Virus record (IMG/VR): IMGVR_UViG_3300045988_107814
Location: 64,001 to 128,000 of that record
Strand: one strand, 5' to 3'
DNA from: a virus
DNA: 64,000 nucleotides
Shown here: one piece after another, positions 31,101 through 63,352 of the stretch
Layout of the letters: each line of letters begins with the position of its first letter
Position numbering within the stretch: position 1 is the first letter of the stretch
Made by a program: the position numbers and the translations under genes
Notes under the pieces: model-generated
Databases searched by the model: none
Told to the model about the DNA's origin: nothing
The model's input: the letters and a program-made list of their open reading frames with translations, nothing else

Positions 31101-34100
31101 TTTGGTGATATGATTAGAACTTCTGTTAAGGCTGCTGGAATAATTGCTATTGCATCTGTAATACCTGGTGGTATCTTTGCAGTTGGTGGCTTTAAACTTG
31201 CCAAGTCTATTAATAAACATTTCGATCTTACTGGAAAAGCTAAACGTCTAACTAAAAAAGGTATTAATAAAGTATCTATGGGTGTTAAGAATAAGCTAGG
31301 TTCTCATGACTTAGATATGCAATCTAGACACCAAAAGAAAAAAGAAAAGAAATATAATAAGAAAGCTAATAAAGCATTAAATGAAGCTATAGAACACAAC
31401 GATCCTAGACTTGATCAAATTGCTCAAGAACAATTTGGACAGAATTATGCTGATCTAGAAAGAAAGCAAAAATATACAGTAAATGATATATTTAGAGAAG
31501 AGGTTAAAAACGAAAAAAGATCTTGGCAAGCTTCTGGTCATGGTTTAGTTGGTAATATAAAAGCTATTGGTAAAAATATGGGCACACTTAAAACTAAAGC
31601 ATTTAATGCAGCCAAAGCTCTAAAAGAAAAGGAACAAGAGAAAGATAACTTTATTGGTAAATTCTTTAATAAATTAGACAAATGGAAAATTAAAAATGAT
31701 AAACGTAAATTTGAAGGCAAGTCCAATCCATTAACTAAAATAATTAAATGGTTATTTGTTGGTGGCATTGCTACTCCTATTCTTGTAGGATTTGTTAAAG
31801 ACAAGATTATGCCAGCAATACATGATAAGATTCAACCATGGTTAAAGAAAGCTGGAGAAAAGATAATTGGTAAAAAGAATCAACAGACTGGTGAATATGA
31901 AGGCGGTATTGTATCTGGTATAGTAAATCCAATTAGAAACTTCTTTAAAGATAAATTCCAAACTATACACGACTGGTTCCATAATGATGGTAAATTTACA
32001 AGTAATGATACTGGTTTTAAAGGCTTCTTAGGAAACTTTGTAAATGTATTTAAGTATGGTGTAAAACTATGGCAAAGTGGTGCTAATACAATTATAAATG
32101 ATGTATTACCTGGATTTGTAGAGGCTATTGTTTCTAAGTTACCAGATATATTAAAATCTGTAGGTAAAGGTATTGTTGATGGTATTGCTTCTTGGTTTGA
32201 TAAGAAAGATGGTACTGGTAAACAATCTCTTGATAAAATTGATGGTTCTATGGTATCTGGTGGCGGTGGTAATACTAGAGCAAATACGAATACTGATAAT
32301 TCTACAATAGAGTTTAATAACACTGTAGGTGGAAAATTCTCTATGGAAGCACCTAAATACATGGGTTCTGGACCAGATTATAGTAGTATTCAAGTAAATG
32401 ATGCATTAGCAGATACATCTCAAACAAAGAATAAAGATGGTACTACTACAATAACAAATAAAGATAATGGTAAAAATGTTACTACAGAAAAAATTAATGA
32501 TGACGAAATGGTATCTGCTGGTGTTAATGCATCTGGAACAGAAATTTTCTATAAACTTTCTGATACAAATAGAACTCAGCCATATTCAAAAACAGGTGAT
32601 GGCCAATATTTAAGAATAGATAATCAAACAGATGTAATGAATAATACATTACAAGATAATACAAGTTTTCAAGAAATGATTGAAAATGATAATGCCGGTA
32701 ATGCTGGTGTTACAAATTCTTATACTGGCACAACTCCTGGATTAGATAATGCTATTAAAGGAACTAAAATCGGTGTTAAAGCACTCACTTCTAAGTCTGG
32801 TGCTAAAGGTCTTACACTGGCTCTTAAAGCCGGTGGTAAAACTATTAAAACAGTTGGTAGAGTTGCTTCTATTCCTGTTGGTGGTAAACGTAGTATAGCT
32901 GGTAAAGTAATAACTAAAACAACTAATGGATTAGGAAATATTGTAGAAAAAGGTGCTGATAAACTTTCTAACGATATATTTAATGTAGGTCAGAAAATAA
33001 CAAACAAAGCATTATCAAAGAGTAAAACACTACAAAAAGTAAATGAACTAGGATTAAAGATAAATGATTCTTGGATGAATAAATTCGGACATGGTCAAAA
33101 TAAACTAGATGCACTTGATAGAAGTATTGATAGAGCACTTGAAAAAGGTGATACTGCTAAAGCAGAAAAATTATTAGACAAAGCTACTAAAGTTGAAGAT
33201 AAAATAAATAATGGAAATGTCTTTAGTAAATTTAAAGATAAGGCTACTTCAAAAGTTAAGAATAGTAAAGCTGGTCAAGCTGTTACTAAAGTTAGCGAAG
33301 GTGCTAAAAATATAAAAACAAAAGCTAAAGATGTTGTTAAGAAAACTAAAGTAGGACAAGCAGCTACAAAAGTTAAAGGCGTAGCTGATGATGCTGTTAA
33401 ATCTGTAAAAGGAATATTCGAAAAAGCTAAAAAGAGTATAGTAGACTGGTTTAAGAAATTATTTAAAAATGGTACATTTAAGAAAGCACTTAAAGAAGCT
33501 GGTCAAGAAGCAAGTGATGAAGCTATTGAAAAAATGGCTAAAGAATCTGGTGAAAAACTAGTTAAGGAATGTGCTGAAGAGGGTGCTGAAAAAATTGCTA
33601 AAGCAGCTGGTAAGAATGCTATAGCAACTGCATCTGATGCAACTGGTATTGGTGTTGTTATTAATATAGCAATGGCTGTAGCAGACTTCGCACTGGGTAT
33701 GGATGATTGCAGAAACATTCTTCAAATAACAGATAAAGAAATTCCTATATCTTGGAGAATATTTGCTGGTCTTGCTAATGCACTTCAAGATATTCCAGCT
33801 GTAGGTATCATATTCGGCATTATCGGTGCTAAAAATATCGTTTATTTCTTAATTGATATTCTAGGTCCTATTATTGCTCCTGATGCAACCAAAAAGATAA
33901 GAGAAAAACAAAAACAAGCTGAAGAAACAGTAGCTGAATATAATAGACAACATAATACAAATCTTACATTAGAAGAATATAATAATAAATTTAATAAAAC
34001 TTTCTCTAGTGTTACTAAGGGATTAGCAGCCGATGCAGGTTCTTTCTTATCTGGTAGAGATGCTACAGTATCTCAATCAATGGAGTCTAGACGTATTGTT

Positions 34101-37100
34101 GAAGATGCCGGTAAAAAAGTAACTAAAATAAGAAAGAAACTAGAAGATATTGCTTCTCATATGTGGGAAAAAGAAGGTAAAAAGTTTAAAGGCTTTAATC
34201 TTACTAAAGAAACATATGGTACATTATGTGCAGAAGTAATTGATAAAATTGTAATGTTGCTAAATGGTTTAGATGAAGATAAATTAGATAAAGTTTTAGA
34301 ATCTGCTGGTAAAATGAGAATGAACTTTGCTGAAAATTATGGTAGTGGATATGTTAAAGTTCTTACATTTGGTGCTGTTGATTTGGACCCATTTGTAGAC
34401 GCTTGGGATGACGGTTATAAAGGTTTGTCATACTTAGGTCTAGATGAGGATAAATTTGAAAATACAGACGTGGTTAAATGTATTGGTGGTATTGCATCTG
34501 TATTTGTAAAATCATGTGGCGGTGCTAAATTAAAAGGAAAAATCATTGATATAGTAATTACTACATTCTGTAAGGGAATGTCAGCTGATGGTAAAAAAAT
34601 TGGTGAAAATGAAAAGAAAATGATAGAAGAAAGCGGTAAAGATATAGAAGAAATAAATAATCAATATACAGCAGTTCAGCAACAATTTAAAGAAGCTGGT
34701 CAAGCTCAATCAGTTGCTATTGATTCTAACGGTAATGTAACTACTGATAATATTGTAACAAATGCAAATGCTAATAATAAACTTTCTACTACCAATACTT
34801 TACAAACAGCAACTTCTCCATTAAGTAAAATCAGTAATAAATTTTCTGAAATTATAAATAATGCAGTTGGTGGATTTACTGGCGGATTAGATAATATTGA
34901 AGAATTGTTTAAATCTTTATCTAGTAAAAATAAGAGTACTAATGAAGCAATTGATGCTATGACACTATTACCAACTGATAAGAAATATTGGAAAATAGAA
35001 TTAGATAATACGAATCCATTTGTTAGTGCTATATTTAACTTTATGGAATCTATGAACAGAGTTGTTAAAGCTCCATTTGCATTAGCAGCAGCTTCTCTAG
35101 GTAGTGGTCTTGAAGTTATTTCTAGTAACTCTGCTGATAATGGTGGATCTGCTCAAACTGTAAATGATTCTAGTGGTAATACTGGAAGTTCAACAGCTTC
35201 TACTAATAATGCTTCTTCTGGTTCTACATCTTCTAAGAGTAGTGGAGGATTCTTAAGTAAAGTAGCAAGTAAAGGTAAAAGTATATTAAAGAAAATTGGT
35301 GGTGCATTTAAGAGTCTATTTGGTAGAGGTGCTGATGATGAATATACCGATGATACAGGTTATGGTGATGATCCATTCCATATTTATCAAAGAGACTATA
35401 AGAGATCATATAAAACAAATGGTGATACAGAAAATCAAACAGTAGCAGATTCTGGTTGTGGCCCAGCCGCAGCAGCTTCTCTATTAAGAATGTATGGTAA
35501 AAACGGTAATATGAATAATGCTGTTAGTTATGCACTTAATAATAACTACAAGGAAGTAAATGGTGGTACTTATCCACAATACTTCAATGATTATCTAAAT
35601 AAAAATGGTATTAGTACTAACTCTAATGCAAATAATAGAGATGTGGTAAATAGTCTTATTCATAATAAACCAGTTATATTAATGGGTCAAGATGCATCCA
35701 ATAGTGGTAGAACTCCATATGGATCTAAGTATTCTCACTATGTCGTTGCTAGAGGACTTGATTCTAATGGTAATGTAATAGTAGAAGATTCTGAAGATAA
35801 AAAGGGTTCTACTAGATATAGCCTTGCTGATACTTTAAGAAATTCTTCTGTAAGAATTACTACAGGTAGTGGAAAATATGGCAGAGCTAAAGGCACTGTG
35901 TTAGATAACTTTGTTAGTGGTGTTAACTCTGTAATGGCTTCTTCTGTTACAAGCATCTTAGGCAACTTATCTAGCAGTATAGGATATAGCGATAGTAGTA
36001 GCGGTAGCACATCATCTAGTGGTAATACTGGTAGTAGCGGTGGTACTGTTATCGCTGGTACTAATGGAACAATAAGTGATCTAACAAAAGACTCCGATGT
36101 TAAAACAAAATGTGGTTATACAGCTGAACAATTAACAGCCGCTATTAAAGCTATACATCCAGAAGGTTGCTCTGCTGAACAATTCCCAGAAGCAGCTATT
36201 AATGTAGAAAAATCTAAAGGTCTTAATGCATTATTTATAATTGCTGCTGCTATTCAAGAACATGGATGGGATGGTAAAGTTGGTATTAATACAACAGGTG
36301 CTAACTGGGGTAACTGGAATGTATTTAATATTATGGGTAGTCCACATGCTTCTAATGGTCGTTGGAAAGACTATAATGATCTTACTGATGCATTTAGTGG
36401 ATTCGGTGATCTTATTCTAGGTAGCACTTATTATGGTGCTGGATTAAAAACGCCTGAAGCGATTGGTAATAGATATTGTCCTCCAGATTTAGAAGAAAAT
36501 GCAAATTACGGTCAATGGGGCGAATCAGTATGTAATGTTGCTCAAAATATTGTAAAACACATTCCTACTTCTGGATCTGGTCGTGGTAATAATAAGATTG
36601 AACCAGCAATAAATAAAAAATTAATAAATAATATTACAGACTCTATTAGTTATGGAACAGTATCTGCTCTTAATGGCGGATCTGGTAAATGGGGTCGTGA
36701 TGGTGAAGAAGATACAACAACCGCTGATGATACCACAACAACAGATACTTCAACAGAAACAACTGATAGTACTACAACTACTACTAATACATCATCATCT
36801 AGTTCTAGTAGTGCTTCTGAATCTGCTGGATTATTAAGTAAACTAACTGAATATACAACTAATCTTACTAAGGGTGTATTTGGAGATTTTTACGATGCAT
36901 TATATGGTAAAACAGAAACAAGTACAACCACACCAACATCTGGTAATACTATTACTGGTACATTATCTTCTGGTGATTCAATTGCTAATATGAAAACCTT
37001 ATTTAGTTACTTTACATCTCAAGGATTAAGTGATAATTTAGCTGCCGGTATTCTTGGTAATATTAAAGCTGAATCTGGTTTTAATCCTAACGTATTATAC

Positions 37101-41678: not shown

Positions 41679-42383
41679 ATGAGTAGTTTAAAAAAGAAAA
41701 TGCAAGATTATAAAAATAAATATGGAGATATACCGCTAGATTATAAAGAACGTCTAGAATGGATGTGTGATAAATATAAAATATCTTCAAATGATATGGA
41801 TTATATTTTGTATGAGCGTGATAGAAGAATGAATTCTCTATATTATACTAGTATAAAAGTTATATTATATCAAGTACCTCAAGGTGCTAAACGTCCTAGA
41901 TATAGGTTTGTTAATAGAAAAAATCTTGTGTCAGCGGCTATTTCAGATCCAGGCTACATACATGTATATTCTCCTGACGCTGCTAGTAACCACGATTATA
42001 TGAAAAGGCTTGTAAATGAACAAGAATTCATACAATTAGAACATCTTATTTGTACTCCATGTGATGTTTGCTATAAAGCCTATTTCCCTACGCCTAAATC
42101 ATATAATAAGACTGAAACGTTTATGGCTGAAATAGGACTCGATAGACCACTAGTAAAACCAGATTTTGATAATATAGAAAAACTATATGCAGATATGTAT
42201 AATAGTAATGTATGGATTGATGATGCTCTTACTGTAGATGCTGCAATAGGAAAATTCTATTCTATATTACCAAGAGTTGAAATTGATCTTAATTATCTTA
42301 ATGCTGTATATTGTAAGCAGCAATATGATAATATAACAAGTAGAAAAGATTATAAAGAAAACATGAACTTATCATTTATTTAA
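41679..42383 (+). CDS. rusA: RusA-family Holliday junction resolvase
   Basis: 234 aa. YQVPQGAKRPRYRF, followed by KPDFDNIEKLYADMYNSNVWIDDALTVD...PRVEIDL, matches the Gram-positive RusA pattern (PQGK-RPR, then KPD-DN-x-K-(x)n-DD). Confidence 0.7.
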   Translation: MSSLKKKMQDYKNKYGDIPLDYKERLEWMCDKYKISSNDMDYILYERDRRMNSLYYTSIKVILYQVPQGAKRPRYRFVNRKNLVSAAISDPGYIHVYSPDAASNHDYMKRLVNEQEFIQLEHLICTPCDVCYKAYFPTPKSYNKTETFMAEIGLDRPLVKPDFDNIEKLYADMYNSNVWIDDALTVDAAIGKFYSILPRVEIDLNYLNAVYCKQQYDNITSRKDYKENMNLSFI

Positions 42384-49603: not shown

Positions 49604-49616
49604 TTATTATGATGTT
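49604..49616 (-). promoter_or_regulatory. candidate phage promoter, AACA-N3-TAWTAA class
   Basis: The minus strand reads AACATCATAATAA, 32 nt upstream of the ATG at 49571. Confidence 0.3.
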
Positions 49617-51754: not shown

Positions 51755-53476
51755 ATGGCTATTTTTTCTGATTTAGAATTAGAAGGAATTCTAAATGAAG
51801 CAGAAGATGAAAGAAAGTATAAAGATAGTGTAAAAAGAAATATACAAAATATTAAAGATGCTGGTAATAAAGCCAAATCTAATATAAAGAATAATTCTTG
51901 GATTGGTAAGAAGATGTCTTCTAAGAATGAATCTGGTATGCAAACTATTACATTTAAAGAAGATGCAGACGGAAATGTTTTAGAAAGCTCTCTAGATGAA
52001 GGAACTAAAGAATCTAGATTTGAAGTAAAATTTGGTGATGATGGTAAGAATAAAAAAGAAACTGTTACTAAACATCGTCATTATGATTTTGAATTTGGAC
52101 TTGGTAATAGACGTGTAAGAGATTCATTTGATAGAAAATATGTCAAACTAGAAGATGATGATTCTTTTGAGGAATCTGAGAAAGTTGATCCTGAAAAAAT
52201 CACAAGAGATTTGACTCTTAAGGCTACTATAGGCATTGGTAAGGAAAAACAAGATTGGGAAGAAAATCCTGGAACTAAAACTGGTGAAATGATTGGAAAT
52301 ATTGCTACTGGTGGTAATTTCCTAAATGATGTTGGTAAGAAAGCTGGTAGAAGTATTGGTTCTAAAGTAGACGATTTCATTCATAAAAAGAATAGAGAAC
52401 GTAGAAAGTTAAAAGAAGATTCTGAAGTTATTTATAGAAGTCCAGAATATAATCGTATTATTGACGAGTTCTTTGACTTTACAGATAGAGAAACTCGTAA
52501 GGTTCTTTTAGCAGTGAATGAAGCTGATCAAAATAAGATTCTTGTTTCTTTAACTTCTAAGCTATATGATAATGTAGTAGATAAAGTAGATGATATCGAT
52601 TTTGGTGAGATTGAAATGTCTAAGGGTGATATTGAAAAACTTCCTAACTTCGAGACACTACATGAATGTCTAAATAATATGGCTAGATTATTGATTGAGT
52701 TTAAGCAAGATACACATCCAGTAGATCAAATCGCTGAATGTATTTCTAATATGATTGAAACTAAGGATATGTGGAAAAAAGCCTATGCTTTAAATGTAGA
52801 ACTTCCTATGATTACTTATAATACTATTGTATTAGCAATTATCGAAGCTACTTCTTATATGGTATCAATGTGTGTAGAATTTGTTAAGTCACCATCAGAA
52901 GATACAATGAAGATAATGATTGATAAGTCTGCTCTTACAAAATCTAAGAGTCATATGATTCTTAAGAATATCGAATCTTTCAACTCTGCATTTAGAAAAG
53001 GTCAAGTACAAAAGGCTATGTGGCATGTTATCGATGAATCTGCAAAGAAAAAGAACTTTGTTGGTCTCGGTATTTATGGCGGATTAGGAGTAGGTGCAGC
53101 TGCTGTAGCTGGAATTGCTGGCTTATTATTCTGTATTATTCCACTGCTTAGAGAATTGATCTTCCTATTCTATTATACTAGGGTGAGAGTTTCTGACTTC
53201 TTTGAAGTGCAGGCTGATCTATTACAAGTATCTTCTTATAATGTAGAGAATAATAGATTAGATCTAACTAAGGAAGAAAGAAAGAAGATTGCCACTAAAC
53301 AAATGAAGACTGCTGATAAGTTTAGAAATGCTTCTAGATTCATTGCTATTAAAACTTCTGAAGCTGAGAACAAAGCAGTCAAAGAAATTAAAAAAGAAGA
53401 TAATAAGAAATATAAAGTGAATGATGTTGTTGATGAACTCCCAGATTCAGCAGCAGCAAGTTCGGCATTATTCTAA
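51755..53476 (+). CDS. hypothetical protein with glycine-zipper hydrophobic hairpin
   Basis: 573 aa, with a GAAAGGAGG RBS. Contains FVGLGIYGGLGVGAAAVAGIAGLLFCIIPLL (about 53057-53150), followed by LTKEERKK. Confidence 0.75.
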   Translation: MAIFSDLELEGILNEAEDERKYKDSVKRNIQNIKDAGNKAKSNIKNNSWIGKKMSSKNESGMQTITFKEDADGNVLESSLDEGTKESRFEVKFGDDGKNKKETVTKHRHYDFEFGLGNRRVRDSFDRKYVKLEDDDSFEESEKVDPEKITRDLTLKATIGIGKEKQDWEENPGTKTGEMIGNIATGGNFLNDVGKKAGRSIGSKVDDFIHKKNRERRKLKEDSEVIYRSPEYNRIIDEFFDFTDRETRKVLLAVNEADQNKILVSLTSKLYDNVVDKVDDIDFGEIEMSKGDIEKLPNFETLHECLNNMARLLIEFKQDTHPVDQIAECISNMIETKDMWKKAYALNVELPMITYNTIVLAIIEATSYMVSMCVEFVKSPSEDTMKIMIDKSALTKSKSHMILKNIESFNSAFRKGQVQKAMWHVIDESAKKKNFVGLGIYGGLGVGAAAVAGIAGLLFCIIPLLRELIFLFYYTRVRVSDFFEVQADLLQVSSYNVENNRLDLTKEERKKIATKQMKTADKFRNASRFIAIKTSEAENKAVKEIKKEDNKKYKVNDVVDELPDSAAASSALF

Positions 53477-53496: not shown

Positions 53497-54828
53497 ATGG
53501 GTATTTACACATCTAATAGATACTTACAGTCTGAAGATTATGTATCTGACATTCCTGTTAATGAAGCATATGATGCTGCATTTGGTTGTGCACATGCACT
53601 TGCTGAATGTGAAATTAATGATATGGCTTTATTTGAAAGTGCTATCTATAGTGATATTGCAGAAGTTAGAGCTATGCAAGAAGGCTATGGTTATGTTAAC
53701 GAAAATGCATTTACTGATGTACTTAAGAGAGTTAAAGAAATTTTCATTAAGCTTATCGGTAAGATTAAAGGTATTTTTGCATCTTTCCTTACTAAATTAA
53801 CATCTGCATTTAAGAGTGGTGAAGATTTAGTAAAGAAGTATAGTACTAAGATTAACTCTTATCAGAATTGGAAAGGCTTTAAGTGTAAGAAGATCCGTAA
53901 GCCTATAGCAAGCGATATCAAAACTGCAATTTTGGACAAAGATGTTTTTGGAACATTTATAAATCAATACAAAACTGGAGCAATAAAATATACATTAAAT
54001 ATAAAGACAGATTCTAATGAAGCTAGTATATCAATTAATACTAAACTTAAAGACTATACTAAGGTAGAAGATATTAAAGAAGCAGATACTGAAGATCTTA
54101 AAAATGCTATTCTCGAAAAGCATATTACAGGCTGTGATGATATCAAGGAAATTACAAAGAGTGTAATGGATAAGTTATTTGAAGAAGAAGAAACAATTGA
54201 TGATGAAGTTAAAGATGGTCAATACTTTAATGCAAATTGGATCAAGGGTGCTTTAGTAGATAGTAAGGACTGGATCAAAGAAGTTAAAAAGTATAACGAT
54301 GAAGTTAATAAAGGTATAAATACAATAATTGATAATCTTAAAAAGACTAATGATAACTTAAATAATTTAATCGATAAAAAGGGAGATATGTATTTTCAAC
54401 ATGGTGCTGAATATGCTAAAAACTTTGCAAGAACTGATGGTAATACTAACAAAGTAATAAAAAATTATTACGGATTTAAAGATGAAAAAGAGACAAAGCA
54501 TAATGTAGCTGATGATAGATATATTAATGGTCAGAAACAAATTGATCCTGATTATCAATTAAGATCTGATAAGGGAGTGTATAGTTTATCTGATGTTCAA
54601 AAGGCAGTTCAAGCATTACAGAAGCTTGCTACTAATCACTCTGAAGTAATTACTACTGTTACAAATGAGTATATGAAAACTGTTAAATTCACTATTGCTC
54701 AGGCTAAGAAACTATATACTGCCGCAGCAGTTTGGTCTTCTGGTGTTCATAAAGAATCTGTAGAATTTTCTGAAGCTATGGGTGATGTAGCATTAGAACA
54801 ATTCTATTCTAATATGGAATCTCTTTAA
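53497..54828 (+). CDS. paralog family member P1 (MGIYT N-terminus)
   Basis: 443 aa, with a GAAAGGAG RBS. It shares three identical blocks with P2 and the family helix NENAFTDVLKRVKEIFIKLIGKIKGIFASF. Confidence 0.8.
   Translation: MGIYTSNRYLQSEDYVSDIPVNEAYDAAFGCAHALAECEINDMALFESAIYSDIAEVRAMQEGYGYVNENAFTDVLKRVKEIFIKLIGKIKGIFASFLTKLTSAFKSGEDLVKKYSTKINSYQNWKGFKCKKIRKPIASDIKTAILDKDVFGTFINQYKTGAIKYTLNIKTDSNEASISINTKLKDYTKVEDIKEADTEDLKNAILEKHITGCDDIKEITKSVMDKLFEEEETIDDEVKDGQYFNANWIKGALVDSKDWIKEVKKYNDEVNKGINTIIDNLKKTNDNLNNLIDKKGDMYFQHGAEYAKNFARTDGNTNKVIKNYYGFKDEKETKHNVADDRYINGQKQIDPDYQLRSDKGVYSLSDVQKAVQALQKLATNHSEVITTVTNEYMKTVKFTIAQAKKLYTAAAVWSSGVHKESVEFSEAMGDVALEQFYSNMESL
53552..53904 (+). repeat. 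identical block 1 shared by P1 and P2 (partner 54984-55336)
   Basis: 353 nt, offset 1432. The protein sequences are identical. The out-of-frame ORFs 53540..53800 and 54957..55232 also translate identically, which requires nucleotide identity. Confidence 0.9.
54052..54266 (+). repeat. identical block 2 shared by P1 and P2 (partner 55490-55704)
   Basis: 215 nt, offset 1438. Encodes DYTKVEDIKEADTEDLK...GALVDSK in both genes. Confidence 0.85.
54587..54822 (+). repeat. identical block 3 shared by P1 and P2 (partner 55956-56191)
   Basis: 236 nt, offset 1369. Encodes LSDVQKAVQALQKLATNHSE...EQFYSNMES in both genes. Confidence 0.85.
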
Positions 54829-54925
54829 AACTTTAATTATAAACATATAAATAAAATGTGTGTAAATCTTTTGATATTGAAAAGTATTAAAGTATATAAC
54901 AACACTAAACAAGGAGGTAAAATTA

Positions 54926-56197
54926 ATGGGTATTTATACATCTGGTAGATATCTGAATGAGGCATATGATTATGCTTCCGATGTTCCTGTTAATGAAGCA
55001 TATGATGCTGCATTTGGTTGTGCACATGCACTTGCTGAATGTGAAATTAATGATATGGCTTTATTTGAAAGTGCTATCTATAGTGATATTGCAGAAGTTA
55101 GAGCTATGCAAGAAGGCTATGGTTATGTTAACGAAAATGCATTTACTGATGTACTTAAGAGAGTTAAAGAAATTTTCATTAAGCTTATCGGTAAGATTAA
55201 AGGTATTTTTGCATCTTTCCTTACTAAATTAACATCTGCATTTAAGAGTGGTGAAGATTTAGTAAAGAAGTATAGTACTAAGATTAACTCTTATCAGAAT
55301 TGGAAAGGCTTTAAGTGTAAGAAGATCCGTAAGCCTGTTAATATTTCTGAAGGCATTATTACTAGTATTAATAAATTATTTGGAAATGAGTCAAGTGATT
55401 CAACTGGTATTGGTAATATCACATACACTATTAATTTAAAAAATACTGGCGATTCTACTAAAAGAATAGCACTTACTACCGGACTTAGAGACTATACTAA
55501 GGTAGAAGATATTAAAGAAGCAGATACTGAAGATCTTAAAAATGCTATTCTCGAAAAGCATATTACAGGCTGTGATGATATCAAGGAAATTACAAAGAGT
55601 GTAATGGATAAGTTATTTGAAGAAGAAGAAACAATTGATGATGAAGTTAAAGATGGTCAATACTTTAATGCAAATTGGATCAAGGGTGCTTTAGTAGATA
55701 GTAAAAAAGCTAAAGAAAAAGTAGAAAAGTATAATAAAAAATGTGTAGAAAATATCAATAAAATTATTGATAATCTTGATAGAGACGAGAAAGCAATTTC
55801 TGAACTTATCGGAAAAAATGTAGATAAATATAAAACAAAAGATACAAGTGCTGATATATCCTACTCTAATTCTGATAAAGGTAAAGTTAGTAAGACTGAT
55901 AAATTCAGTTATTCTGAAACTGATAATAAACCATCTGCTAGTTATGGTGTTAGTCTATCTGATGTTCAAAAGGCAGTTCAAGCATTACAGAAGCTTGCTA
56001 CTAATCACTCTGAAGTAATTACTACTGTTACAAATGAGTATATGAAAACTGTTAAATTCACTATTGCTCAGGCTAAGAAACTATATACTGCCGCAGCAGT
56101 TTGGTCTTCTGGTGTTCATAAAGAATCTGTAGAATTTTCTGAAGCTATGGGTGATGTAGCATTAGAACAATTCTATTCTAATATGGAATCTATCTAA
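54926..56197 (+). CDS. paralog family member P2 (MGIYT N-terminus)
   Basis: 423 aa, with an AAGGAGG RBS. Mosaic with P1. Confidence 0.8.
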   Translation: MGIYTSGRYLNEAYDYASDVPVNEAYDAAFGCAHALAECEINDMALFESAIYSDIAEVRAMQEGYGYVNENAFTDVLKRVKEIFIKLIGKIKGIFASFLTKLTSAFKSGEDLVKKYSTKINSYQNWKGFKCKKIRKPVNISEGIITSINKLFGNESSDSTGIGNITYTINLKNTGDSTKRIALTTGLRDYTKVEDIKEADTEDLKNAILEKHITGCDDIKEITKSVMDKLFEEEETIDDEVKDGQYFNANWIKGALVDSKKAKEKVEKYNKKCVENINKIIDNLDRDEKAISELIGKNVDKYKTKDTSADISYSNSDKGKVSKTDKFSYSETDNKPSASYGVSLSDVQKAVQALQKLATNHSEVITTVTNEYMKTVKFTIAQAKKLYTAAAVWSSGVHKESVEFSEAMGDVALEQFYSNMESI

Positions 56198-56218
56198 TAG
56201 AAAGGAGATATAAACACA

Positions 56219-57529
56219 ATGGGTATTTATACTGAAGCTTATACTAGTTATGATCATTCTGATTATACTAGTGTAGAGCCATTTATTGGTGAGAGCTTTA
56301 ACTATCATGAATTAGGTATTATTGCTGCTCATGAAATTAACACTAATTATAATTCCTTTATGAAGAGCATTGCATTGTCTGAACTTGCTGCTCTTGAACA
56401 GACTGGTTCCACAGATGTGTTCTATGAGTCTGTAGATATTAAGGGTATCTTTGCTAAGATCAAGGCATTTTTCCAAAAGGTTCTTGAAAAGATTAGAAAG
56501 ATTTTCCATACATTCATTGCTAAGATGAAATCTTGGTTTGGTGATACTAAGAAGTTTGCTGAAAAGTATGGTAAAGAAATTAAGAATAAATGGAATAATG
56601 TTAAATCTGACTGGGAATTCAAAGGATATAACTTTAGTGTCGTTGATAATGTTAAAATTGATACCGACATTAAAGCAGATGCTAAAACTAATAGTAATGC
56701 ATTAAAGCAACTTATGGCTACTTCCGATTTTACAGGGCTTGCTAATAGTGGATATGCTAAAATTAGTGGTGGTACTTATAAAGATACTCAAGGTCAAGAT
56801 ACTAATAACGATGACTGGGCTAATCATAAAACAACAAAACCTGGACCCAATAACACTTATGCAGAACCTGAGAATGATCAAACTTTTAAAGATCTTAAAG
56901 CAGCAATCTCTTCTATTAATGAAAACTATGAAGATTGTGTAGATCATATGCGTCAGCAGGCAATTACAAGTATTGCTGGCAACGATCATAAACTTTTATT
57001 AAAATTTGATGTTTCTGCTTCTGGTGATGGTTTAGATGCTAAAGAGTTCTCTAAAGAATTATTTAAAGCATTTAGAAACGACGAAGATTCTAAGAAAAAT
57101 ATTACTAAGTCTGAAATTGAAACTATGTACGGTGGAAGCATTAATAACTTAGTTGAGTTTATTAAAAATTTTGATAAGACACTTAAAGATGTTAAGGAAG
57201 CTCAAAAGAAGATTGATGATTCTTACAAGAAGCTAATTTCTAAAATTGAATCTCAGGCTAGCAAATTAAAGTCTGAAAATACTGGAAAAAATGATAATCT
57301 AACATATTGTGCAGGATTCTATCAGAAAGTTTACAGTAGTATTTCTAGTATTGTTACTGAAGAATTCGCTGCATATATTTCTGCACTTAAAGAAAAGTGC
57401 ACACAGGCTAAGGAAATCTGCGTTAAGACTATTAGTCTTTCTAAGAAAATGACAGAATCTTATGACTATTTCGATAGTTATAGCGATAATGGTGGTTTTG
57501 ATTTTATTAGCTCTGTAAAGCTAGTTTAA
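56219..57529 (+). CDS. paralog family member P3 (MGIYT N-terminus)
   Basis: 436 aa. Family helix FYESVDIKGIFAKIKAFFQKVLEKIRKIFHTF. Confidence 0.8.
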   Translation: MGIYTEAYTSYDHSDYTSVEPFIGESFNYHELGIIAAHEINTNYNSFMKSIALSELAALEQTGSTDVFYESVDIKGIFAKIKAFFQKVLEKIRKIFHTFIAKMKSWFGDTKKFAEKYGKEIKNKWNNVKSDWEFKGYNFSVVDNVKIDTDIKADAKTNSNALKQLMATSDFTGLANSGYAKISGGTYKDTQGQDTNNDDWANHKTTKPGPNNTYAEPENDQTFKDLKAAISSINENYEDCVDHMRQQAITSIAGNDHKLLLKFDVSASGDGLDAKEFSKELFKAFRNDEDSKKNITKSEIETMYGGSINNLVEFIKNFDKTLKDVKEAQKKIDDSYKKLISKIESQASKLKSENTGKNDNLTYCAGFYQKVYSSISSIVTEEFAAYISALKEKCTQAKEICVKTISLSKKMTESYDYFDSYSDNGGFDFISSVKLV

Positions 57530-57567
57530 TAAATCAGAAGTTCTGATTATATAAATTGTAAATCAGA

Positions 57568-57600
57568 GCTGGGATACCTACAGGTGTCCCAGCCCTTTAT
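57568..57600 (+). terminator. rho-independent terminator
   Basis: gctgggatacc-taca-ggtgtcccagc stem followed by CCTTTAT. Confidence 0.65.
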
Positions 57601-57623
57601 ATTATTATATAGGAGGTAAGTAA

Positions 57624-58799
57624 ATGTCTTTATTATTTTCTTTAGATAATATTCTCCTAAATGAATCTAACGATATTATCGATATCGATAATATTGAATG
57701 TATGGATAACAGTTTAAAAAATTATTCTTTTGTGCAAGAAGGATATAATTTTATTCTAGAAATGAATTCAGATTACATTACTGCTGAAAAGACATTTTGC
57801 GAAGCAGTTTTAGGTTCTTATGGTAATGATAATATTATTAACGAATCATTTAGTGGATTCTTTGATAAGATTAAAGCAATCATTCATAAATTTATTGATT
57901 GGGTTAAAAAGATCTTTAAAGAATTTTCTATCAAGATTCATTCTTTAGTTTCTAGTGATAAGTATATTAAGAAAAACCATAAACTTCTTGATAAATTTGA
58001 CGATTCTAAAGATGAATTTGAATTTGAAGGGTACGAATTTTCCAATATTAATAACACAACGATTCCAGCAAATAACGCTTTAGATGCGTTTTCTGAAGAT
58101 AATGATGGTAAAGGTTATCTTAATACTTGGTATGGTGCTTCTGGTACTGATGAAGAAAAAACAAATGAATTAAACAATAACCTAAATCAAAAATTATCAA
58201 ATCTTCAAGATAATATGGAAGATTTCTATGATAGTTTTAGAGCTAAAGTTATTAATAGAACAGATGAGTCATATGATTCTAGTGAATACGGAGAAGTACT
58301 ATTTAAATTATTTAGAAGTGGTGAAACTAGCCCTTCTTCAATTACAGTAGATAGTTCTCTTGTAAATGAAATCTATCATAGATTTGATAGCTATAAAGAA
58401 ACAGTAAAGTCTATCGAAAAAACTCAAAAAGATATTATAAAAAACTATCAAGATTTAGAAAAGTATCTAGATAAAATGATTAAATTATCGAAAGAGGGAG
58501 AAAAGCTAAAACTTTCTATTAGCGATACATCTAGTGTTTATGCAAATAAACAAATTGAAACATTAGGAAATGTGTCTAATCGAAAGTCAGACAATGAAAT
58601 TAAAAACAAATCTACATTTGATATTATGAATAATTATCTAAAAGTACAATCTACTAAAATAAATGAGATGTGTCAAATTCATACAAGAGCATTTACTGCT
58701 AAATTAGAAGCTGCTAAAGATTGCTTTAAACAAGATAAAAAGATTCTTTATAAAGCATTATCTAAAGTAGCTAAACGTTCTAATAAATCTGACTATTAA
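57624..58799 (+). CDS. paralog family member P4
   Basis: 391 aa, with a TAGGAGG RBS. Family helix INESFSGFFDKIKAIIHKFIDWVKKIFKEF. Confidence 0.8.
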   Translation: MSLLFSLDNILLNESNDIIDIDNIECMDNSLKNYSFVQEGYNFILEMNSDYITAEKTFCEAVLGSYGNDNIINESFSGFFDKIKAIIHKFIDWVKKIFKEFSIKIHSLVSSDKYIKKNHKLLDKFDDSKDEFEFEGYEFSNINNTTIPANNALDAFSEDNDGKGYLNTWYGASGTDEEKTNELNNNLNQKLSNLQDNMEDFYDSFRAKVINRTDESYDSSEYGEVLFKLFRSGETSPSSITVDSSLVNEIYHRFDSYKETVKSIEKTQKDIIKNYQDLEKYLDKMIKLSKEGEKLKLSISDTSSVYANKQIETLGNVSNRKSDNEIKNKSTFDIMNNYLKVQSTKINEMCQIHTRAFTAKLEAAKDCFKQDKKILYKALSKVAKRSNKSDY

Positions 58800-58816
58800 T
58801 ATGGAGGTGAAACAAT

Positions 58817-60280
58817 ATGGAATTAAGTTTAGATAATACTATTGTAAATGAAGTCGAATCTTCTATTGAAAGACAGAGTAGAGATATTAAATTTTGTTAT
58901 GATATTGCCGAGCAAAATCGTGAAATGGAAAGATATGTTAATGAATGTATTATCAAAGCTAGTGGTAATAAGAAAGCTATTAACGAAATGTATGTTCTTA
59001 ATGAATCTTCTTTTACGTCAAAAATCAAGAATTTCTTCTTAAAAATCATAAACTTCTTTAAAAAAATTTTTGAAAAATTTATTGCCGCTATGAGAGGTAT
59101 ATTTCAACAACATAAAAATTATATTGATTCATATAATGTTATAATTACTAAATGTAAATGGAAAGCTGGAGATGTCTATGATATAAAAAATAGATTTATC
59201 GGAATAGCTAGAATTCTTGAAGCTGCCAATAATGTAAATGATGCAATTATCGGAATGAATATAGATAGATTTGTAAATGAAAACAATGTACCTGAGTTAG
59301 AAATAAATGACTCAATATATTCAGATTCTAAAAAATTAGAAAGTTTAAAACTTCCAGAAAAAATTTCTAATGGAGAAGGAAAACAACAAATGTTTGATCA
59401 ATTTATCAAACAAGGATATTGGAAAAATGTCAAAGATTTTAATTCTTATAAAGAAACAGACTCCGAAGGTAATGTAGATACAGCTGCTACATTTTCTTCT
59501 TGGTTTGATGGTGGTAAAGGAACTGTAACATGGAATGAAAACTATGTAGATGAAAACTTTCAAACTATTATTAATGTAACATATGCTGGTGAATCTTATC
59601 TAAAAAAATTAGAAAGTATAGTGTCTGTTATTACTAAAAAGATGAAAGAATCTTCTGATAAAATGGAAAAATATGTTAAAGAAGCTTCTGATAAAATTAA
59701 TAAATCTATTGATTCTACACCAAATTCTACTTCCACCAAAACAGGTACGGGAACCCAAACAGATACAGAACAATCAACTCAAACAGCGTCAGCTGATATG
59801 ACATTGAATTATTCTGGCGGATATATCAATGAAGTAGGTTTTAGACCTAGTAGTTCAAATGATGAAAATAAGACTGATTTAAACAAAACTGGTGATAAAG
59901 AAATAAAAAATGCAACTAAGACACATCAAGATATACAAAATATGCAAGTTAAAGGTCTTAAGAGTGCAGATGTAGATACTTCTGGTGCCAATACTAAAGA
60001 CCTTAAAGATAAGGCACAAAAATATCTAGATATTGATATGAATAATAGACAGGTAAGAATTAATGAATCTGTAAATATCTCATCAACAATTGCTAAAAAA
60101 ATGCTTGAATCTTTTGAAAAGACGACTGATGATTTTTATAAGATTATCAAAGCACATGTTCAATGGTATTTATCTAATCCAGGTGAAGATAAAAAAGAAG
60201 AAAATAAAACTAATAGACCAAGAAATCTCAATTTAAACGCTGGAGCAGTTCAAGTGGAAAAGAATACTCCTAAATCTTAA
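58817..60280 (+). CDS. paralog family member P5
   Basis: 487 aa, with a TGGAGG RBS. Family helix LNESSFTSKIKNFFLKIINFFKKIFEKF. Confidence 0.8.
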   Translation: MELSLDNTIVNEVESSIERQSRDIKFCYDIAEQNREMERYVNECIIKASGNKKAINEMYVLNESSFTSKIKNFFLKIINFFKKIFEKFIAAMRGIFQQHKNYIDSYNVIITKCKWKAGDVYDIKNRFIGIARILEAANNVNDAIIGMNIDRFVNENNVPELEINDSIYSDSKKLESLKLPEKISNGEGKQQMFDQFIKQGYWKNVKDFNSYKETDSEGNVDTAATFSSWFDGGKGTVTWNENYVDENFQTIINVTYAGESYLKKLESIVSVITKKMKESSDKMEKYVKEASDKINKSIDSTPNSTSTKTGTGTQTDTEQSTQTASADMTLNYSGGYINEVGFRPSSSNDENKTDLNKTGDKEIKNATKTHQDIQNMQVKGLKSADVDTSGANTKDLKDKAQKYLDIDMNNRQVRINESVNISSTIAKKMLESFEKTTDDFYKIIKAHVQWYLSNPGEDKKEENKTNRPRNLNLNAGAVQVEKNTPKS

Positions 60281-60289
60281 TAAAAATTT

Positions 60290-60315
60290 ACCAGAGTACT
60301 TTAAAGTACTCTGGT
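60290..60315. terminator. bidirectional terminator hairpin
   Basis: accagagtact-ttaa-agtactctggt forms an 11-bp stem between convergent genes. Confidence 0.8.
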
Positions 60316-60319
60316 ACTT

Positions 60320-61531
60320 TTATTCGTTAAATGCTTTCTTAAACTTTAATACAGTACTCATTATAAAATTCTCTGTCTGTTTTATAAATAGCTGTTGAAC
60401 TTGTAGTAATATATATCGTCCAGAATATGATTCATGTACTGGATCGTTTATAATATACTCTTTATTCAATGTAAATAAAGATGCATCTAAATCATTCTTT
60501 ACTATACTAATTACAACATTAGCAGATTCTACATTATGTGTTATAGGATTAATAGTATTTTGATCATTATTAGATACATTCATTACTTGATTAATAGTAG
60601 ATGTGATTTTTGCTTTGTTATCTTGTACTTCTTGTTCAAATACATCGCCTTTGGAATTTATAACAGTTACTTTATTTACCATCTTATTAGAAACCATGTT
60701 TTTAGTATATTCTACTTTAGAAGCATCTATTCCTATAGTACATTTTCCAGATCGTAGGTCTAAATAAGATCCAGGCTCTTCGGATGTAGTATTATCAATT
60801 TTTCTTATATCTATTACTATTGTATAAATATATTGATTACGAGCACGTATTGGGTTGCCTGACGATGATACAATATACGTAGTATCAAAATCAATAAAAA
60901 ACCTATAAGAAGTATCATAAAACGTTCCCAAGTTATCATTTAAGTACTTTACATAATTAGATATAGAATCAATAGGAGGAATTATAACTTGATCAAACTT
61001 AGTATCATATCTAATTGGTTCAAGCAACATATTACCTAGATAATTAGAAGATTGTAATATTAACGAATTCATACTAGCATTATGATATACTCCATTTATA
61101 GTATTTCTGTTATTATTAATAGCATCTTGTTGTATTAAGAATATAGTAACTTCTTTATATTGTCTATTACCAGTTTTTGAATCTATTCCATCTGGATTAT
61201 CTAATTTATCAGTTCTAGATAAATCTTCGTTTAAAATATATATGAATTTATCATTAAAATATTTCTCTGTTACATTATCACTTTGGTTAGTATTGTCATA
61301 TTTATATATACCTAATGTAACAAGATTATCATTAGAATGCTTGATCATATCATCTAGAATATTCTTTTCTATAGAACCAAATATAGTGATTACAGGCATA
61401 TTAGTATTATCAAAATCTTTATCTATAAGAATATATTGAATCTGTTTAGAATCTATTTCCACTTCAGTATTAGTAGAATTGATATATTTTAATACAATCT
61501 TATAGTTATACTGTTCACCTTGTTTAGCCAT
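60320..61531 (-). CDS. hypothetical protein
   Basis: 403 aa, with a GAAGGAG RBS. Confidence 0.75.
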   Translation of the reverse strand: MAKQGEQYNYKIVLKYINSTNTEVEIDSKQIQYILIDKDFDNTNMPVITIFGSIEKNILDDMIKHSNDNLVTLGIYKYDNTNQSDNVTEKYFNDKFIYILNEDLSRTDKLDNPDGIDSKTGNRQYKEVTIFLIQQDAINNNRNTINGVYHNASMNSLILQSSNYLGNMLLEPIRYDTKFDQVIIPPIDSISNYVKYLNDNLGTFYDTSYRFFIDFDTTYIVSSSGNPIRARNQYIYTIVIDIRKIDNTTSEEPGSYLDLRSGKCTIGIDASKVEYTKNMVSNKMVNKVTVINSKGDVFEQEVQDNKAKITSTINQVMNVSNNDQNTINPITHNVESANVVISIVKNDLDASLFTLNKEYIINDPVHESYSGRYILLQVQQLFIKQTENFIMSTVLKFKKAFNE

Positions 61532-61567
61532 TTTATCATCTCCTTCATTATAAAAAAGTTACAAAGC

Positions 61568-61603
61568 AAAAAAGAAACACAAGTGACTTGTCCGTCACTT
61601 GTG
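61568..61603 (-). terminator. rho-independent terminator
   Basis: cacaagtgac-ttgtcc-gtcacttgtg forms a 10-bp stem. The A-run before it gives a T-run on the minus strand. Confidence 0.75.
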
Positions 61604-61612
61604 GATTTCTTT

Positions 61613-62620
61613 TTAATTAGAGTTCATAGCTCTAACAAATGGTTCATCAACTTCAAGTAAAAACAGGTAGTTAAGAATGTTCTCTTCATCTACATTGAAA
61701 GTCTTGTCCAATACGTTAGCTAAGTTGTTATAGTCGCATTGTTTGTACACACGCCAACTTTTAACAAGAGATTCATAAGAGTTCTCGTATACTTTAGTGT
61801 AAGTTATAAGATCGCTAATACAAAGTCTCCTAAACATATCTTCTGACTCTGTTTTCTGGAATATTACTGGAGAATTATAACCATTCAGAAGTTGTCCCTT
61901 CGAAATCTTTTCTCGTATAATTGTAATAGTCCGTTTGAAATTATTAATCATTTCCATACCAAGTTCAGGACACTTGTGATATGCCATTATTACTGGTATT
62001 AGTCCAGGATTAATATCAGATGTTACTGTAGAACCTTTCCTAGGATACATTATATCTATTACATTATTAAATGTAATAAACTTTGTATTGGTACTTGGTC
62101 TAATAACAAATGACGATGGAATGAATGCTGGAATCTGATAAGAATATATACTATTTGATATAATTAGAGCAGAATGTCTAACTGGTAATGTTTCTGATTT
62201 AATCAAACTGAATATAACAGAAGCAGAGTTATATACATTTCTCTCTATAAAATATACCAATGGAAAATATGGTGATATCTTCTTCAGTATAATAAACATA
62301 TCTTCGTTCTTAGCATTTATATTTTCAAAAATATTATTGATACTAGATAACGTATTGACTATAAAGATTCTAGTGTTAACGTTATACCTAGACTTAAAAT
62401 AGTGCCTGTAATGAGCAGCTAGATTAAGTATATTTACCGATAATATTTTAACATCATTAACTAACAAAGTTTCAGCAAGAACGTTCTTATATATCGACTG
62501 TACGTCAATATAAATATCAACTGGAGTCTTTGTTAGGATATTAGATGATGGATTGTTTATTAGAAACTGATCAAGAATGTTATACTTGACAAATTTCTGA
62601 AACAATAAAGCTCTATTCAT
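61613..62620 (-). CDS. hypothetical protein
   Basis: 335 aa. Its ATG overlaps the upstream stop in TAATG (62618-62622). Confidence 0.75.
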   Translation of the reverse strand: MNRALLFQKFVKYNILDQFLINNPSSNILTKTPVDIYIDVQSIYKNVLAETLLVNDVKILSVNILNLAAHYRHYFKSRYNVNTRIFIVNTLSSINNIFENINAKNEDMFIILKKISPYFPLVYFIERNVYNSASVIFSLIKSETLPVRHSALIISNSIYSYQIPAFIPSSFVIRPSTNTKFITFNNVIDIMYPRKGSTVTSDINPGLIPVIMAYHKCPELGMEMINNFKRTITIIREKISKGQLLNGYNSPVIFQKTESEDMFRRLCISDLITYTKVYENSYESLVKSWRVYKQCDYNNLANVLDKTFNVDEENILNYLFLLEVDEPFVRAMNSN

Positions 62621-62964
62621 TAATCATCACCTACGCTGTTTATAAGTTTTTTCAATTTGGATTCGCATTTATCGCAAATACTTGGTATATCTGTAAATGG
62701 ATGTTGTCCATCTGAAAATACTATACACATTGTAGAATTGCAGAGTTTACACTTAGTATAAAATCTTGTATGAAACGGAATAGAAATAGGATATAGTTTT
62801 CTTATACATGTTTCGAACAAACATCTATCCTGTATAGTATCAGCATACTGACAATTCTTACAATCATCAGTATACTTTACAATATCAACACCATCCTCTT
62901 TATCATAATTTGGAGTAGCGTTGTTATACTTTTTTAATGTTGAATCAAATACACCTTTTGACAT
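62620..62964 (-). CDS. zinc-ribbon protein (three CxxC pairs)
   Basis: The ORF track uses a TTG at 62976. The ATG at 62964 (MSKGVF) has GGAG 6 nt upstream (114 aa). Contains CKNC, CKLC and CDKC plus additional cysteines. Confidence 0.7.
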   Translation of the reverse strand: MSKGVFDSTLKKYNNATPNYDKEDGVDIVKYTDDCKNCQYADTIQDRCLFETCIRKLYPISIPFHTRFYTKCKLCNSTMCIVFSDGQHPFTDIPSICDKCESKLKKLINSVGDD

Positions 62965-62965
62965 A

Positions 62966-63352
62966 TCAATCTCCAATCAGAGCTTTAGGATCATAGAAAT
63001 CATCTTCAATAGTACCAGCATCTGCATCATATAATTCATCAGATTCTCCAAGTACAGAATTCAATGATTTTCTAAAATCTTCTCTATTTTGAAGAATACC
63101 TAGAACTTCTTTTGTATTACCATAACCCATATTGAGTAATGTTTTTGCAAGTTCAGACGGGCCTTCTTCTGTCATAAAAGTATAACCTTTATTGCAGGTT
63201 TCTGTTCCATCTGGATTAGAAATCCATTTACGAACTTCCAATCTTTCAGTAGGATTATCTCCCCATCTAATTTTTCTTACAGCACCAAAAAGGTTCTGTT
63301 TTTCTTCAAATGTAAAGTCAATATTCTCTACAACTGTATATGAGAATGCCAT
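62966..63352 (-). CDS. PC4/YdbC-like ssDNA-binding protein with acidic tail
   Basis: 128 aa, with a TAAGGAGG RBS. VRKIRWGDNPTERLEVRKWISNPDGTETCNKGYTFMTEEGPSELAKTLL matches the bacterial PC4-like pattern (W-G..., D-I-R-x-W, K-G-x-T-L-x-x-E-E). The C-terminus DELYDADAGTIEDDFYDP is acidic, like SSB tails. Confidence 0.5.
   Translation of the reverse strand: MAFSYTVVENIDFTFEEKQNLFGAVRKIRWGDNPTERLEVRKWISNPDGTETCNKGYTFMTEEGPSELAKTLLNMGYGNTKEVLGILQNREDFRKSLNSVLGESDELYDADAGTIEDDFYDPKALIGD

Follow-up and report, generated by a model that had tools for sequence, protein, structure and literature searches.

Evidence for concerted evolution and cassette exchange in a tandem gene pair of an AR9/PBS1-like jumbo phage

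The distal tail-fibre adhesin loci gp37/gp38 of T-even phages contain conserved motifs that flank hypervariable segments and serve as recombination sites at which specificity is swapped. Tandem paralogues in general can undergo interlocus gene conversion, which leaves them close to each other at silent sites, in tracts with sharp and variable bounds, while islands of divergence persist. The T4 internal proteins IPI-III, which are packaged and ejected and bear a targeting sequence, are encoded in hyperplastic regions with conserved promoter cassettes termed PeSLs (PMC2839356; PMC4122927). Among giant phages, the number of paralogues of the PF12699 family varies from 2 to 7 (PMC5694885), and phiKZ has five tandem internal head protein genes, gp92-96, encoding proteins of 371-547 aa. 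Here a tandem pair of paralogous genes, P1 and P2, is described from a 64-kb stretch of viral DNA (the window; positions 64,001 to 128,000 of IMG/VR record IMGVR_UViG_3300045988_107814, 30% G+C, from a genome of ~219 kb). The evolution of this pair appears to combine known processes, namely the concerted evolution of tandem paralogues and framework-mediated module swapping of the kind seen in tail-fibre adhesins.

P1 and P2 are the first of five consecutive genes, P1-P5. This array resembles the phiKZ-type PF12699 family (phiKZ gp92-96 and gp162/163; SPN3US gp53/54, 'paralog family A') in being made of tandem same-strand paralogues of ~370-550 aa beside head structural genes, in having an N-terminal helical module matched by PF12699, and in belonging to a jumbo phage with a split DNA polymerase and a multisubunit RNA polymerase. 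Copy number in that family varies between related phages (PMC5694885), as it does at the P1/P2 locus. The homology is remote, however, P1 and P2 being linked to the family via P3 and P4, and the nearest isolates to the window's phage are AR9 and PBS1, phages of Gram-positive hosts. A literature search found no description of a concertedly evolving pair, or of two population-wide hypervariable cassettes, among phiKZ-type internal head proteins.

The T-even adhesins offer an analogy, since there too conserved segments bracket hypervariable ones that are reassorted among related phages by homologous recombination. They belong to an unrelated protein family and act at the fibre tip, whereas P1 and P2 are probably located inside the head, have framework blocks of 215-353 nt and are resident in two copies. 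The IPI-III loci are likewise strongly variable among relatives, and the PeSLs at their recombination joints may be compared with the promoter-bearing spacer between P1 and P2, but they vary by replacement of whole genes rather than of intragenic cassettes on a conserved framework. With general interlocus gene conversion the pair shares closeness at silent sites, sharp tract bounds of variable position and persisting diverged islands; it differs in being a structural gene pair of a lytic jumbo phage, in which the same framework mediates allele exchange between genomes of a very large natural population.

P1 (53497-54828, 443 aa) and P2 (54926-56197, 423 aa), referred to below as copies a and b, lie on the plus strand, as do all their segments; both were present in the list of open reading frames (ORFs) and correspond to database proteins P0001 (100% match) and P0004. 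Each gene alternates between framework and variable segments. Block A of P1 (53552-53904, 353 nt), which carries the helical module of P1-P5 matched by PF12699, equals 54984-55336 of P2, block B (54052-54266, 215 nt) equals 55490-55704, and block C (54587-54822, 236 nt) equals 55956-56191. Compared base by base, the three blocks contain 0 mismatches, although this identity may be partly by construction, as de Bruijn assemblers can make resolved repeats identical through bubble popping, and the safe reading is that the blocks are near-identical or identical. Block B can be extended by 1 nt to the left and no other boundary can be moved; a repeat search of the window returned the same three repeat families. 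The three blocks with their lengths had been recognized in the original prediction, and neither they nor their freedom from scattered differences needs revision. The matching out-of-frame ORFs to which it also pointed (53540-53800 and 54957-55232) are present as a trivial result of the DNA identity.

The remaining segments differ between the copies. Over the first 55 nt of P1 (segment N1, 53497-53551) and 58 nt of P2 (segment N2, 54926-54983), 19 of 58 aligned columns are different, in agreement with the earlier statement that the gene starts diverge. Cassette 1, or variable region 1 (VR1), is of type alpha in P1 (53905-54051) and beta in P2 (55337-55489), the two differing at 85 of 153 columns and sharing 28% protein identity. 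Cassette 2 (VR2), again alpha in P1 (54267-54586) and beta in P2 (55705-55955), differs at 198 of 320 columns. The first ~100 nt of P1 cassette 2 encode a moderately conserved helix, and the remainder is hypervariable with a low-confidence structure prediction. This helix is conserved across the family (mean identity 0.80), and the first ~62 nt of the cassette (54267-54339 against 55705-55777) are still 71% identical between P1 and P2. The inserts had been called unrelated, which was wrong: they align at the protein level, occupy constant positions in every homologue, and are thus homologous hypervariable regions. Because the identity of block B ends at 54266 despite the 71% identity beyond it, the end of a conversion tract is not set simply by loss of homology.

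These features can be accommodated if P1 and P2 are an old tandem pair inside the P1-P5 array of an AR9/PBS1-like jumbo phage of the mammalian gut, the array encoding probable internal head or ejection-type virion proteins that are distant relatives of phiKZ_IP (PF12699). In each protein, a three-block framework under purifying selection is combined with two hypervariable regions. Repeated framework exchange between copies a and b erases synonymous divergence in blocks A, B and C, leaving the variable regions and the extreme N-terminus anciently diverged. In the population, the framework also provides the homology for crossovers by which co-circulating strains, single-copy lineages included, replace and reassort their variable regions, so that the diversity consists of old allele classes being shuffled rather than of local hypermutation. 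The framework, and especially the N-terminal module of P1-P5, would be needed for incorporation into the head, and selection would keep the variable regions of the two copies different. We regard this explanation, taken as a whole, as probable.

A first concern is whether the tandem arrangement is real, since alleles of a single gene from co-occurring strains could have been joined in tandem, or the repeats mis-phased, during assembly. Repeats evidently trouble assemblers at this locus. One related contig, L004 (ERZ2115219, SPAdes, 218,633 bp), is 100% identical to window positions 53850-63197, and its start, at window position 53850, lies exactly 55 nt short of where block A ends, which indicates that the identical blocks break short-read assemblies at k=55. 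Repeat nodes of de Bruijn graphs are identical by construction, and a further locus (L001), with flanks 100% identical to those of the window, has a single gene. Against this, the end of block C is connected to the second block A by sequence that is unique in the window, namely the 97-nt spacer (54829-54925) and the N-terminus specific to P2. The same P1-spacer-P2 junction recurs in three other assemblies made with SPAdes and MEGAHIT: L004, L005 (ERZ18726985, a separate sample, 92% identical) and L025 (a fourth sample, MEGAHIT, 96% identical), the last of which also has the N1-alpha-alpha phase of P1. At least eight more distant genomes, of ~212-218 kb, carry two copies, and the spacer has a homologue in all two-copy relatives, including distant ones. 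As the unique junction is found in independent assemblies, the tandem arrangement is not an assembly artefact, the scenario that would have undone the prediction of a tandem pair is set aside, and such an origin is considered highly unlikely.

Silent sites distinguish recent homogenization from mere conservation. For P1 against P2, synonymous divergence (dS, Nei-Gojobori method) reaches 2.1 over the N-terminal 18 codons and 1.0-1.1 across the two cassettes, and is ~0 in all three framework blocks. The same framework differs between lineages by a dS of 0.8-1.8, with a ratio of non-synonymous to synonymous divergence (dN/dS) of ~0.1-0.3. Silent sites of the framework are therefore free to change between lineages, and the identity within the genome must stem from recent homogenization; purifying selection alone was rejected as its cause on the same contrast. 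Of the third-codon framework positions, 247 are variable across the family; P1 disagrees with P2 at 1 of these, and either gene disagrees with other lineages at 109-132, which excludes chance as an explanation of the identity between P1 and P2.

The window is not a special case. Third-codon differences between copies a and b amount to 30 within L008 (43-71 to its orthologues), 49 within L013 (67-71) and 39 within L009 (~110-135 to orthologues or other lineages). With the single difference of the window, paralogues within a genome (1, 30, 39 and 49 differences) are thus closer at silent sites than orthologues between genomes (43-135), as concerted evolution predicts. In every two-copy genome the copies share long identical framework tracts whose boundaries differ between genomes, for instance 387 and 177 nt in L008, 366 nt in L014, 144, 174 and 120 nt in L003, and 120, 138 and 147 nt in L009. 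A Sawyer-type test, in which the longest concordant run at framework sites polymorphic in the family was compared with permutations, was significant (P<=0.0004) in 6/6 other genomes (L002, L003, L008, L009, L013 and L014); for the window itself, where 3 differences remain, it is uninformative. Block A also records a change shared by both copies. It is the same in P1 and P2 and differs at 23-24 of 353 positions from the variant found in copy a of L025 and copy b of L005, which are themselves 1/353 apart; if these two loci from different samples are taken as one strain type, the variants are paired by strain type and block A has changed in concert in both copies since the split. Recurrent interlocus gene conversion between copies a and b, general across two-copy genomes, is therefore well supported from sequence comparison, and the earlier proposal that conversion homogenizes the framework is borne out by the concerted block A and by the significant tracts elsewhere.

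The comparison with related phages that had been called for was possible at 23 loci, and it revealed the two-copy layout, conversion tracts and cassette replacement alike. Homologues of P1 number >380 in metagenomes, mostly from gut and rumen samples and on contigs of ~177-221 kb. A single-sequence scan of IMG/VR gave no match, and alignment-based scans gave 4 and 14 loci; blastn and tblastn searches with the locus and with P1 against 50,697 phage records gave no match, and the major head protein likewise gave none. Two copies are present in the window and in L002, L003, L007, L008, L009, L012, L013, L014 and L018, and one copy is present in L006, L010, L011, L015-L017 and L019-L021. In two-copy genomes, copy a begins ~20 nt after an upstream gene for a 573-aa protein, and the homologous spacer separates a from b. 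In true single-copy genomes, the conserved spacer of ~100 nt precedes the only gene and directly follows the 573-aa gene. The start codons differ between clades: in one of them (L002, at 5583 and 7001, with L003, L007, L008, L013 and L014) both paralogues start with TTG, translated LGIYTS..., and the window's clade starts with ATG, MGIYT opening P1, P2 and P3.

The same unusual order (upstream gene, copy a, spacer, copy b) in several lineages points to one origin of the pair rather than to repeated duplication. It also bears on a different history, in which a recent duplication was followed by three foreign imports (the N-terminus, cassette 1 and cassette 2) without any conversion between a and b. 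Such a history requires a similar number of events, it invokes a between-strain cassette replacement that does occur, also in single-copy lineages, and a tree based on P4 places single-copy lineages between two-copy ones. It is opposed by the shared layout and the homologous spacer in distant lineages, by the varying tract boundaries and the closeness of within-genome paralogues relative to orthologues in three lineages, and by the concerted change of block A between the window and the L005/L025 strain type. Moreover, identity reaches the very edges of the cassettes, with no donor framework imported alongside. A recent duplication followed by imports is accordingly judged improbable, and an old pair kept alike by conversion is preferred.

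The identical blocks of P1 and P2 are direct repeats spaced 1.43 kb apart, and unequal crossing-over between them would be expected to leave single a/b hybrid genes. L001 (ERZ1034170, a 13.3-kb locus from a different sample) has this appearance. Its upstream flank matches the window at 100% over 6,408 nt and its downstream flank at 99.93% over 6,055 nt, so that over ~12.5 kb L001 and the window differ essentially only at the P1/P2 locus, where one gene replaces two and the spacer is missing. This gene has the structure N1-A-c1(P2)-B'-c2(P1)-C-tail(P2), c1 and c2 being cassettes 1 and 2, and is followed by the downstream flank of P2: it starts with the P1 N-terminus, its cassette 1 is identical to that of P2, and its cassette 2 is that of P1 with 1 mismatch. 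Its block B is a variant with a 13-nt patch and a 3-nt insertion, which shows that L001 is not simply a mis-path through the window's own assembly graph. An analogous hybrid from another clade, L022 (ERZ773224), combines an a-type 5' flank, a b-like block A, a-like cassettes nearest to those of L008 copy a, and a b tail. Both could be deletions by unequal crossover, together with conversion, or assembly collapses; either way, the P1/P2 locus is a recombination hot spot. The earlier suggestion that recombination between the direct repeats generates new combinations or collapses the pair agrees with these hybrids, which are either deletions or assembly collapses. A RusA-like resolvase gene is found near the locus, at 41679-42383.

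In the family as a whole, variability is concentrated in the two cassettes. Homologues average a pairwise protein identity of 0.31 in VR1 and 0.25 in VR2, compared with 0.61 in block B and 0.82-0.87 in block A, block C and the N-terminal segment. When the cassettes of 120 representative homologues were typed at 70% identity, 43 VR1 types and 50 VR2 types occurred in 70 combinations, including five four-gamete quartets. One variable region is at least 90% identical and the other at most 40% in 37 pairs with VR1 alike and in 34 pairs with VR2 alike, and among 726 pairs whose frameworks are >=97% identical, VR1 is <=40% identical in 97 and VR2 in 201. Individual comparisons agree: copies b of L002 and L003 differ mainly in VR1, and the single-copy loci L015 and L019 have a dN of 0.018 (dS 0.27) in framework block A and a dN of 0.7-0.9 in the cassettes. 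As replacement thus occurs in single-copy lineages too, exchange between genomes, and not only between a and b, must be a main source of it. Cassette replacement by recombination with other phages had been offered as an alternative to conversion; between-strain swaps do take place, with both cassettes reassorting independently. Identical cassettes were never found on frameworks that are <=90% identical, which indicates that exchange stays within sublineages.

Two sharply bounded hypervariable regions within a conserved protein might also arise by programmed diversification, through a diversity-generating retroelement (DGR) or through silent-cassette antigenic variation of the pilS or vls type. 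No second copy of any cassette was found in the 64-kb window at the DNA or the protein level. A retroelement would require a template repeat, of which there is none in these 64 kb, and the variable regions differ by many indels and in length. In place of the partial silent copies of pilE/pilS or vlsE systems, the same 64 kb contain two full-length copies with ribosome-binding sites and no partial ones. P1 and copy a of L025, which belong to the same allele class, differ at 7/147 positions in cassette 1 and 5/320 in cassette 2, no more than their flanks, which are 96% identical. Divergence within a class at the rate of the flanks, the indels and the lack of a second cassette copy in the 64 kb together exclude hypermutation such as that of a DGR and, as far as these 64 kb go, an archive of silent cassettes. 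The repeat search of the window also found no inverted repeats flanking the cassettes, and a shufflon-like mechanism was rejected, with indels present and no such repeats. Programmed diversification is thus given next to no weight, and the exchange of old allele classes through the framework remains the preferred mechanism.

What maintains these classes is a separate matter. An elevated non-synonymous divergence of the cassettes had been suggested as a test, and the elevation itself is there (dN/dS ~0.7-1.6, and ~1.1-1.3 for close allele pairs, against ~0.1-0.3 in the framework), but it does not separate diversifying selection from relaxed constraint. The same recombination mechanics could operate on variable regions that are merely unconstrained loops or linkers, with the diversity and even the second copy as neutral by-products. 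A cassette dN/dS near 1, divergence within an allele class at the background rate, and the absence of identical cassettes from the more divergent frameworks are all in keeping with neutrality, as is the very low confidence of the model in the hypervariable part of VR2, which may be disordered. On the other side, allele classes saturated in dS persist in strains whose flanks are 96-100% identical, and in all eight two-copy genomes examined the copies a and b carry different cassette classes (23-49% identity) despite conversion of the framework. VR1 is modelled as a fold of helices and a beta hairpin (predicted local distance difference test, pLDDT, 72-80), and diverged islands that escape conversion are often interpreted as selected (PMC3728101). 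Neutral variable regions are a real possibility, though one that falls somewhat short of being favoured.

The selective counterpart of this reading goes further. The proteins would travel in the head and be ejected into the cell, their variable regions would determine specificity or recognition, old classes would be kept by negative frequency-dependent selection, and framework and second copy together would form a recombination-based system of combinatorial diversity. The source of such selection may be variable host targets, or host defences that either sense the variable regions or are inhibited by them, and by analogy the system may be likened to the shuffling of tail-fibre adhesins, acting after DNA entry. 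In this full form the proposal is tentative and, on present evidence, rather unlikely.

The assignment to the head rests on remote similarity and on context. P3 (56219-57529, plus strand, 436 aa) is 21% identical to P1, and profile comparison with HHalign links the P1 and P3 families with a reported probability of 98.1% (E 1e-13, 285 columns). P4 (57624-58799, plus strand, 391 aa) is joined to P3 by the same method (99.8%), and P5 (58817-60280, plus strand, 487 aa) shares with P1-P4 only the N-terminal module of ~100 aa (86-87%, E about 4e-6). This helical module (F..KIK.FF.K..EKI.KIF..F..K) recurs in five consecutive genes whose remainders differ, and could be a head-targeting or assembly module. 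PF12699 is the commonest Pfam family among the 23 P3/P4 orthologues, 7 of which it matches. Its best score is for the L002 orthologue of P4 (32.6 bits against a gathering score of 27, at aa 70-130, within the module shared by P1-P5), and P3 itself reaches 15 bits (E 0.015, profile positions 88-375 of 387; gathering score 27 bits). Four PHROGs annotated as internal head protein were matched weakly, and the comparison with AR9 gp215/gp216 was weak as well; the syntenic AR9 gp215 is annotated as a virion structural protein, to which similarity is marginal. Searches of the P1 and P3/P4 family profiles against Protein Data Bank (PDB) sequences returned only spurious coiled-coil and apolipoprotein matches.

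The layout, too, is that of the PF12699 family: two virion structural genes precede P1-P5, which share one strand, and phiKZ gp92-96 are arranged alike. The nearer of these genes (51755-53476, plus strand) encodes the 573-aa protein already mentioned, which matches the virion structural protein phrog_23545 (E 2.9e-29), ends 20 nt upstream of copy a and is matched by tblastn to gp214 of Bacillus phage AR9 and a PBS1 virion structural protein, the gp214 match covering only its C-terminal half. At residues ~440-480 it has a Gly/Ala-rich hydrophobic stretch, GLGIYGGLGVGAAAVAGIAGLLFCIIPLL, membrane-spanning or fusion-like in appearance, and AR9 gp213, the gene preceding gp214, is annotated with a transmembrane domain. 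With moderate confidence, slightly better than even, P1 and P2 may be placed as a remote branch of the internal head/ejection protein superfamily, and the expectation of a packaged or surface protein gains support from this distant connection with the internal head proteins of the phiKZ type. Residues 21-23 of P1 form a [V/I]-x-E motif that aligns across P1-P4, its E23 being invariant; the conserved V-N-E of P1, which lies downstream of N1, is possibly a prohead-protease site, in which case the variable N-terminus would lie in a propeptide.

The spacer between P1 and P2 contains a conserved non-coding element (54842-54880, plus strand). Its first 12 nt, AACATATAAATA at 54842-54853, fit the experimentally defined late promoter consensus of AR9, AACA-N6-TA/G (PMC5312081), and are followed by ~28 invariant nt that would be transcribed. 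The whole element of ~40 nt, AACATATAAATAAAATGTGTGT(GT)(G)AAATCTTTTGATATT, is nearly invariant in L002, L006, L009, L011, L018, L019 and L021, across lineages in which the flanking proteins are only 45-50% identical. In an RNAalifold prediction its invariant AUCUUUU pairs with the Shine-Dalgarno sequence AAGGAGG, without covariation. The extended motif occurs once in the window and is not a repeated element.

The 12-nt core is not enriched across the window, and the looser AACA-N6-TR is ~2.2 times denser in intergenic than in coding DNA. AACA-N6-T[AG], often in an AACAT-N4-TATAAT-like form, precedes many ORFs at a distance of 17-110 nt, the major head gene and a giant ORF among them (sites at 6431, 12905, 22343, 25128, 39209, 41651 and 54842 on the plus strand and at 49605, 22312 and 62694 on the minus strand), which suggests AR9-type late promoters in the window's uncultivated phage. 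No terminator was found after P1. Together with the promoter-like spacer, this indicates that transcription of copy b probably starts at a late promoter of its own within the spacer, and that copy a probably depends on read-through from the structural genes before it. A strong terminator-like hairpin lies between P3 and P4 (57568-57593, plus strand), and a perfectly palindromic, bidirectional one follows P5 at 60289-60316, where the plus- and minus-strand gene blocks converge.

The wider context is that of a jumbo phage. Among isolates, Bacillus phages AR9 and PBS1 are nearest, and the neighbourhood of the locus, including RusA, is syntenic with AR9. The hallmark genes in the window comprise a large major head protein, an RNA polymerase beta-like subunit (19415-21637, minus strand) and a split DNA polymerase, whose family-B parts, at 4150-6192 (minus strand) and 22409-24508 (plus strand), are ~16 kb apart, as in phiKZ/AR9-like phages. 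The giant ORF of 4,663 aa (25170-39161, plus strand), with a Peptidase_C39_2 domain at aa 3426-3541 and a Phage_lysozyme2 domain at aa 3940-4110, presumably encodes a giant virion-associated lysin or a tape-measure-like protein.

Several points weigh against the explanation of an old, converting pair of probable head proteins with exchanged cassettes. The order of upstream gene, copy a, spacer and copy b is not the product of a simple tandem duplication, and three lineages might each have duplicated the gene independently, although this is unlikely. L004 and the window may stem from one set of reads, the single strain type of L005 and L025 is an assumption, and both the exact 100% identity and the phase of the cassettes across identical blocks depend on the assemblers. 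The cassette dN/dS is compatible with both relaxed constraint and diversifying selection. With regard to the head assignment, PF12699 gave no hit to P1 or P2 at E<=1, and direct comparison with phiKZ gp92-96 by hhalign was weak (E 0.003, 36 columns). The AlphaFold2 (AF2) model of P1 is mostly helical and poor overall (pLDDT 60), with 35-48 in the core of VR2. A Foldseek search of the model against BFVD found nothing significant, the best matches (E 4.9e-3, TM 0.28-0.35) being uncharacterized proteins of gut Myoviridae.

As an example from nature of interlocus gene conversion in a lytic phage, P1 and P2 are well documented. The case has a practical side, as perfect repeats of 215-353 nt break or collapse short-read assemblies and make copy number and cassette phase fragile without long reads. 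If the P1/P2 family belongs to the large groups of internal or ejection protein paralogues of giant phages, it would show that these contain a pair of discrete hypervariable modules, present across the population and borne on a strongly conserved scaffold. The locus would then be the main difference between otherwise identical genomes, and it would mark the residues likeliest to meet the host.

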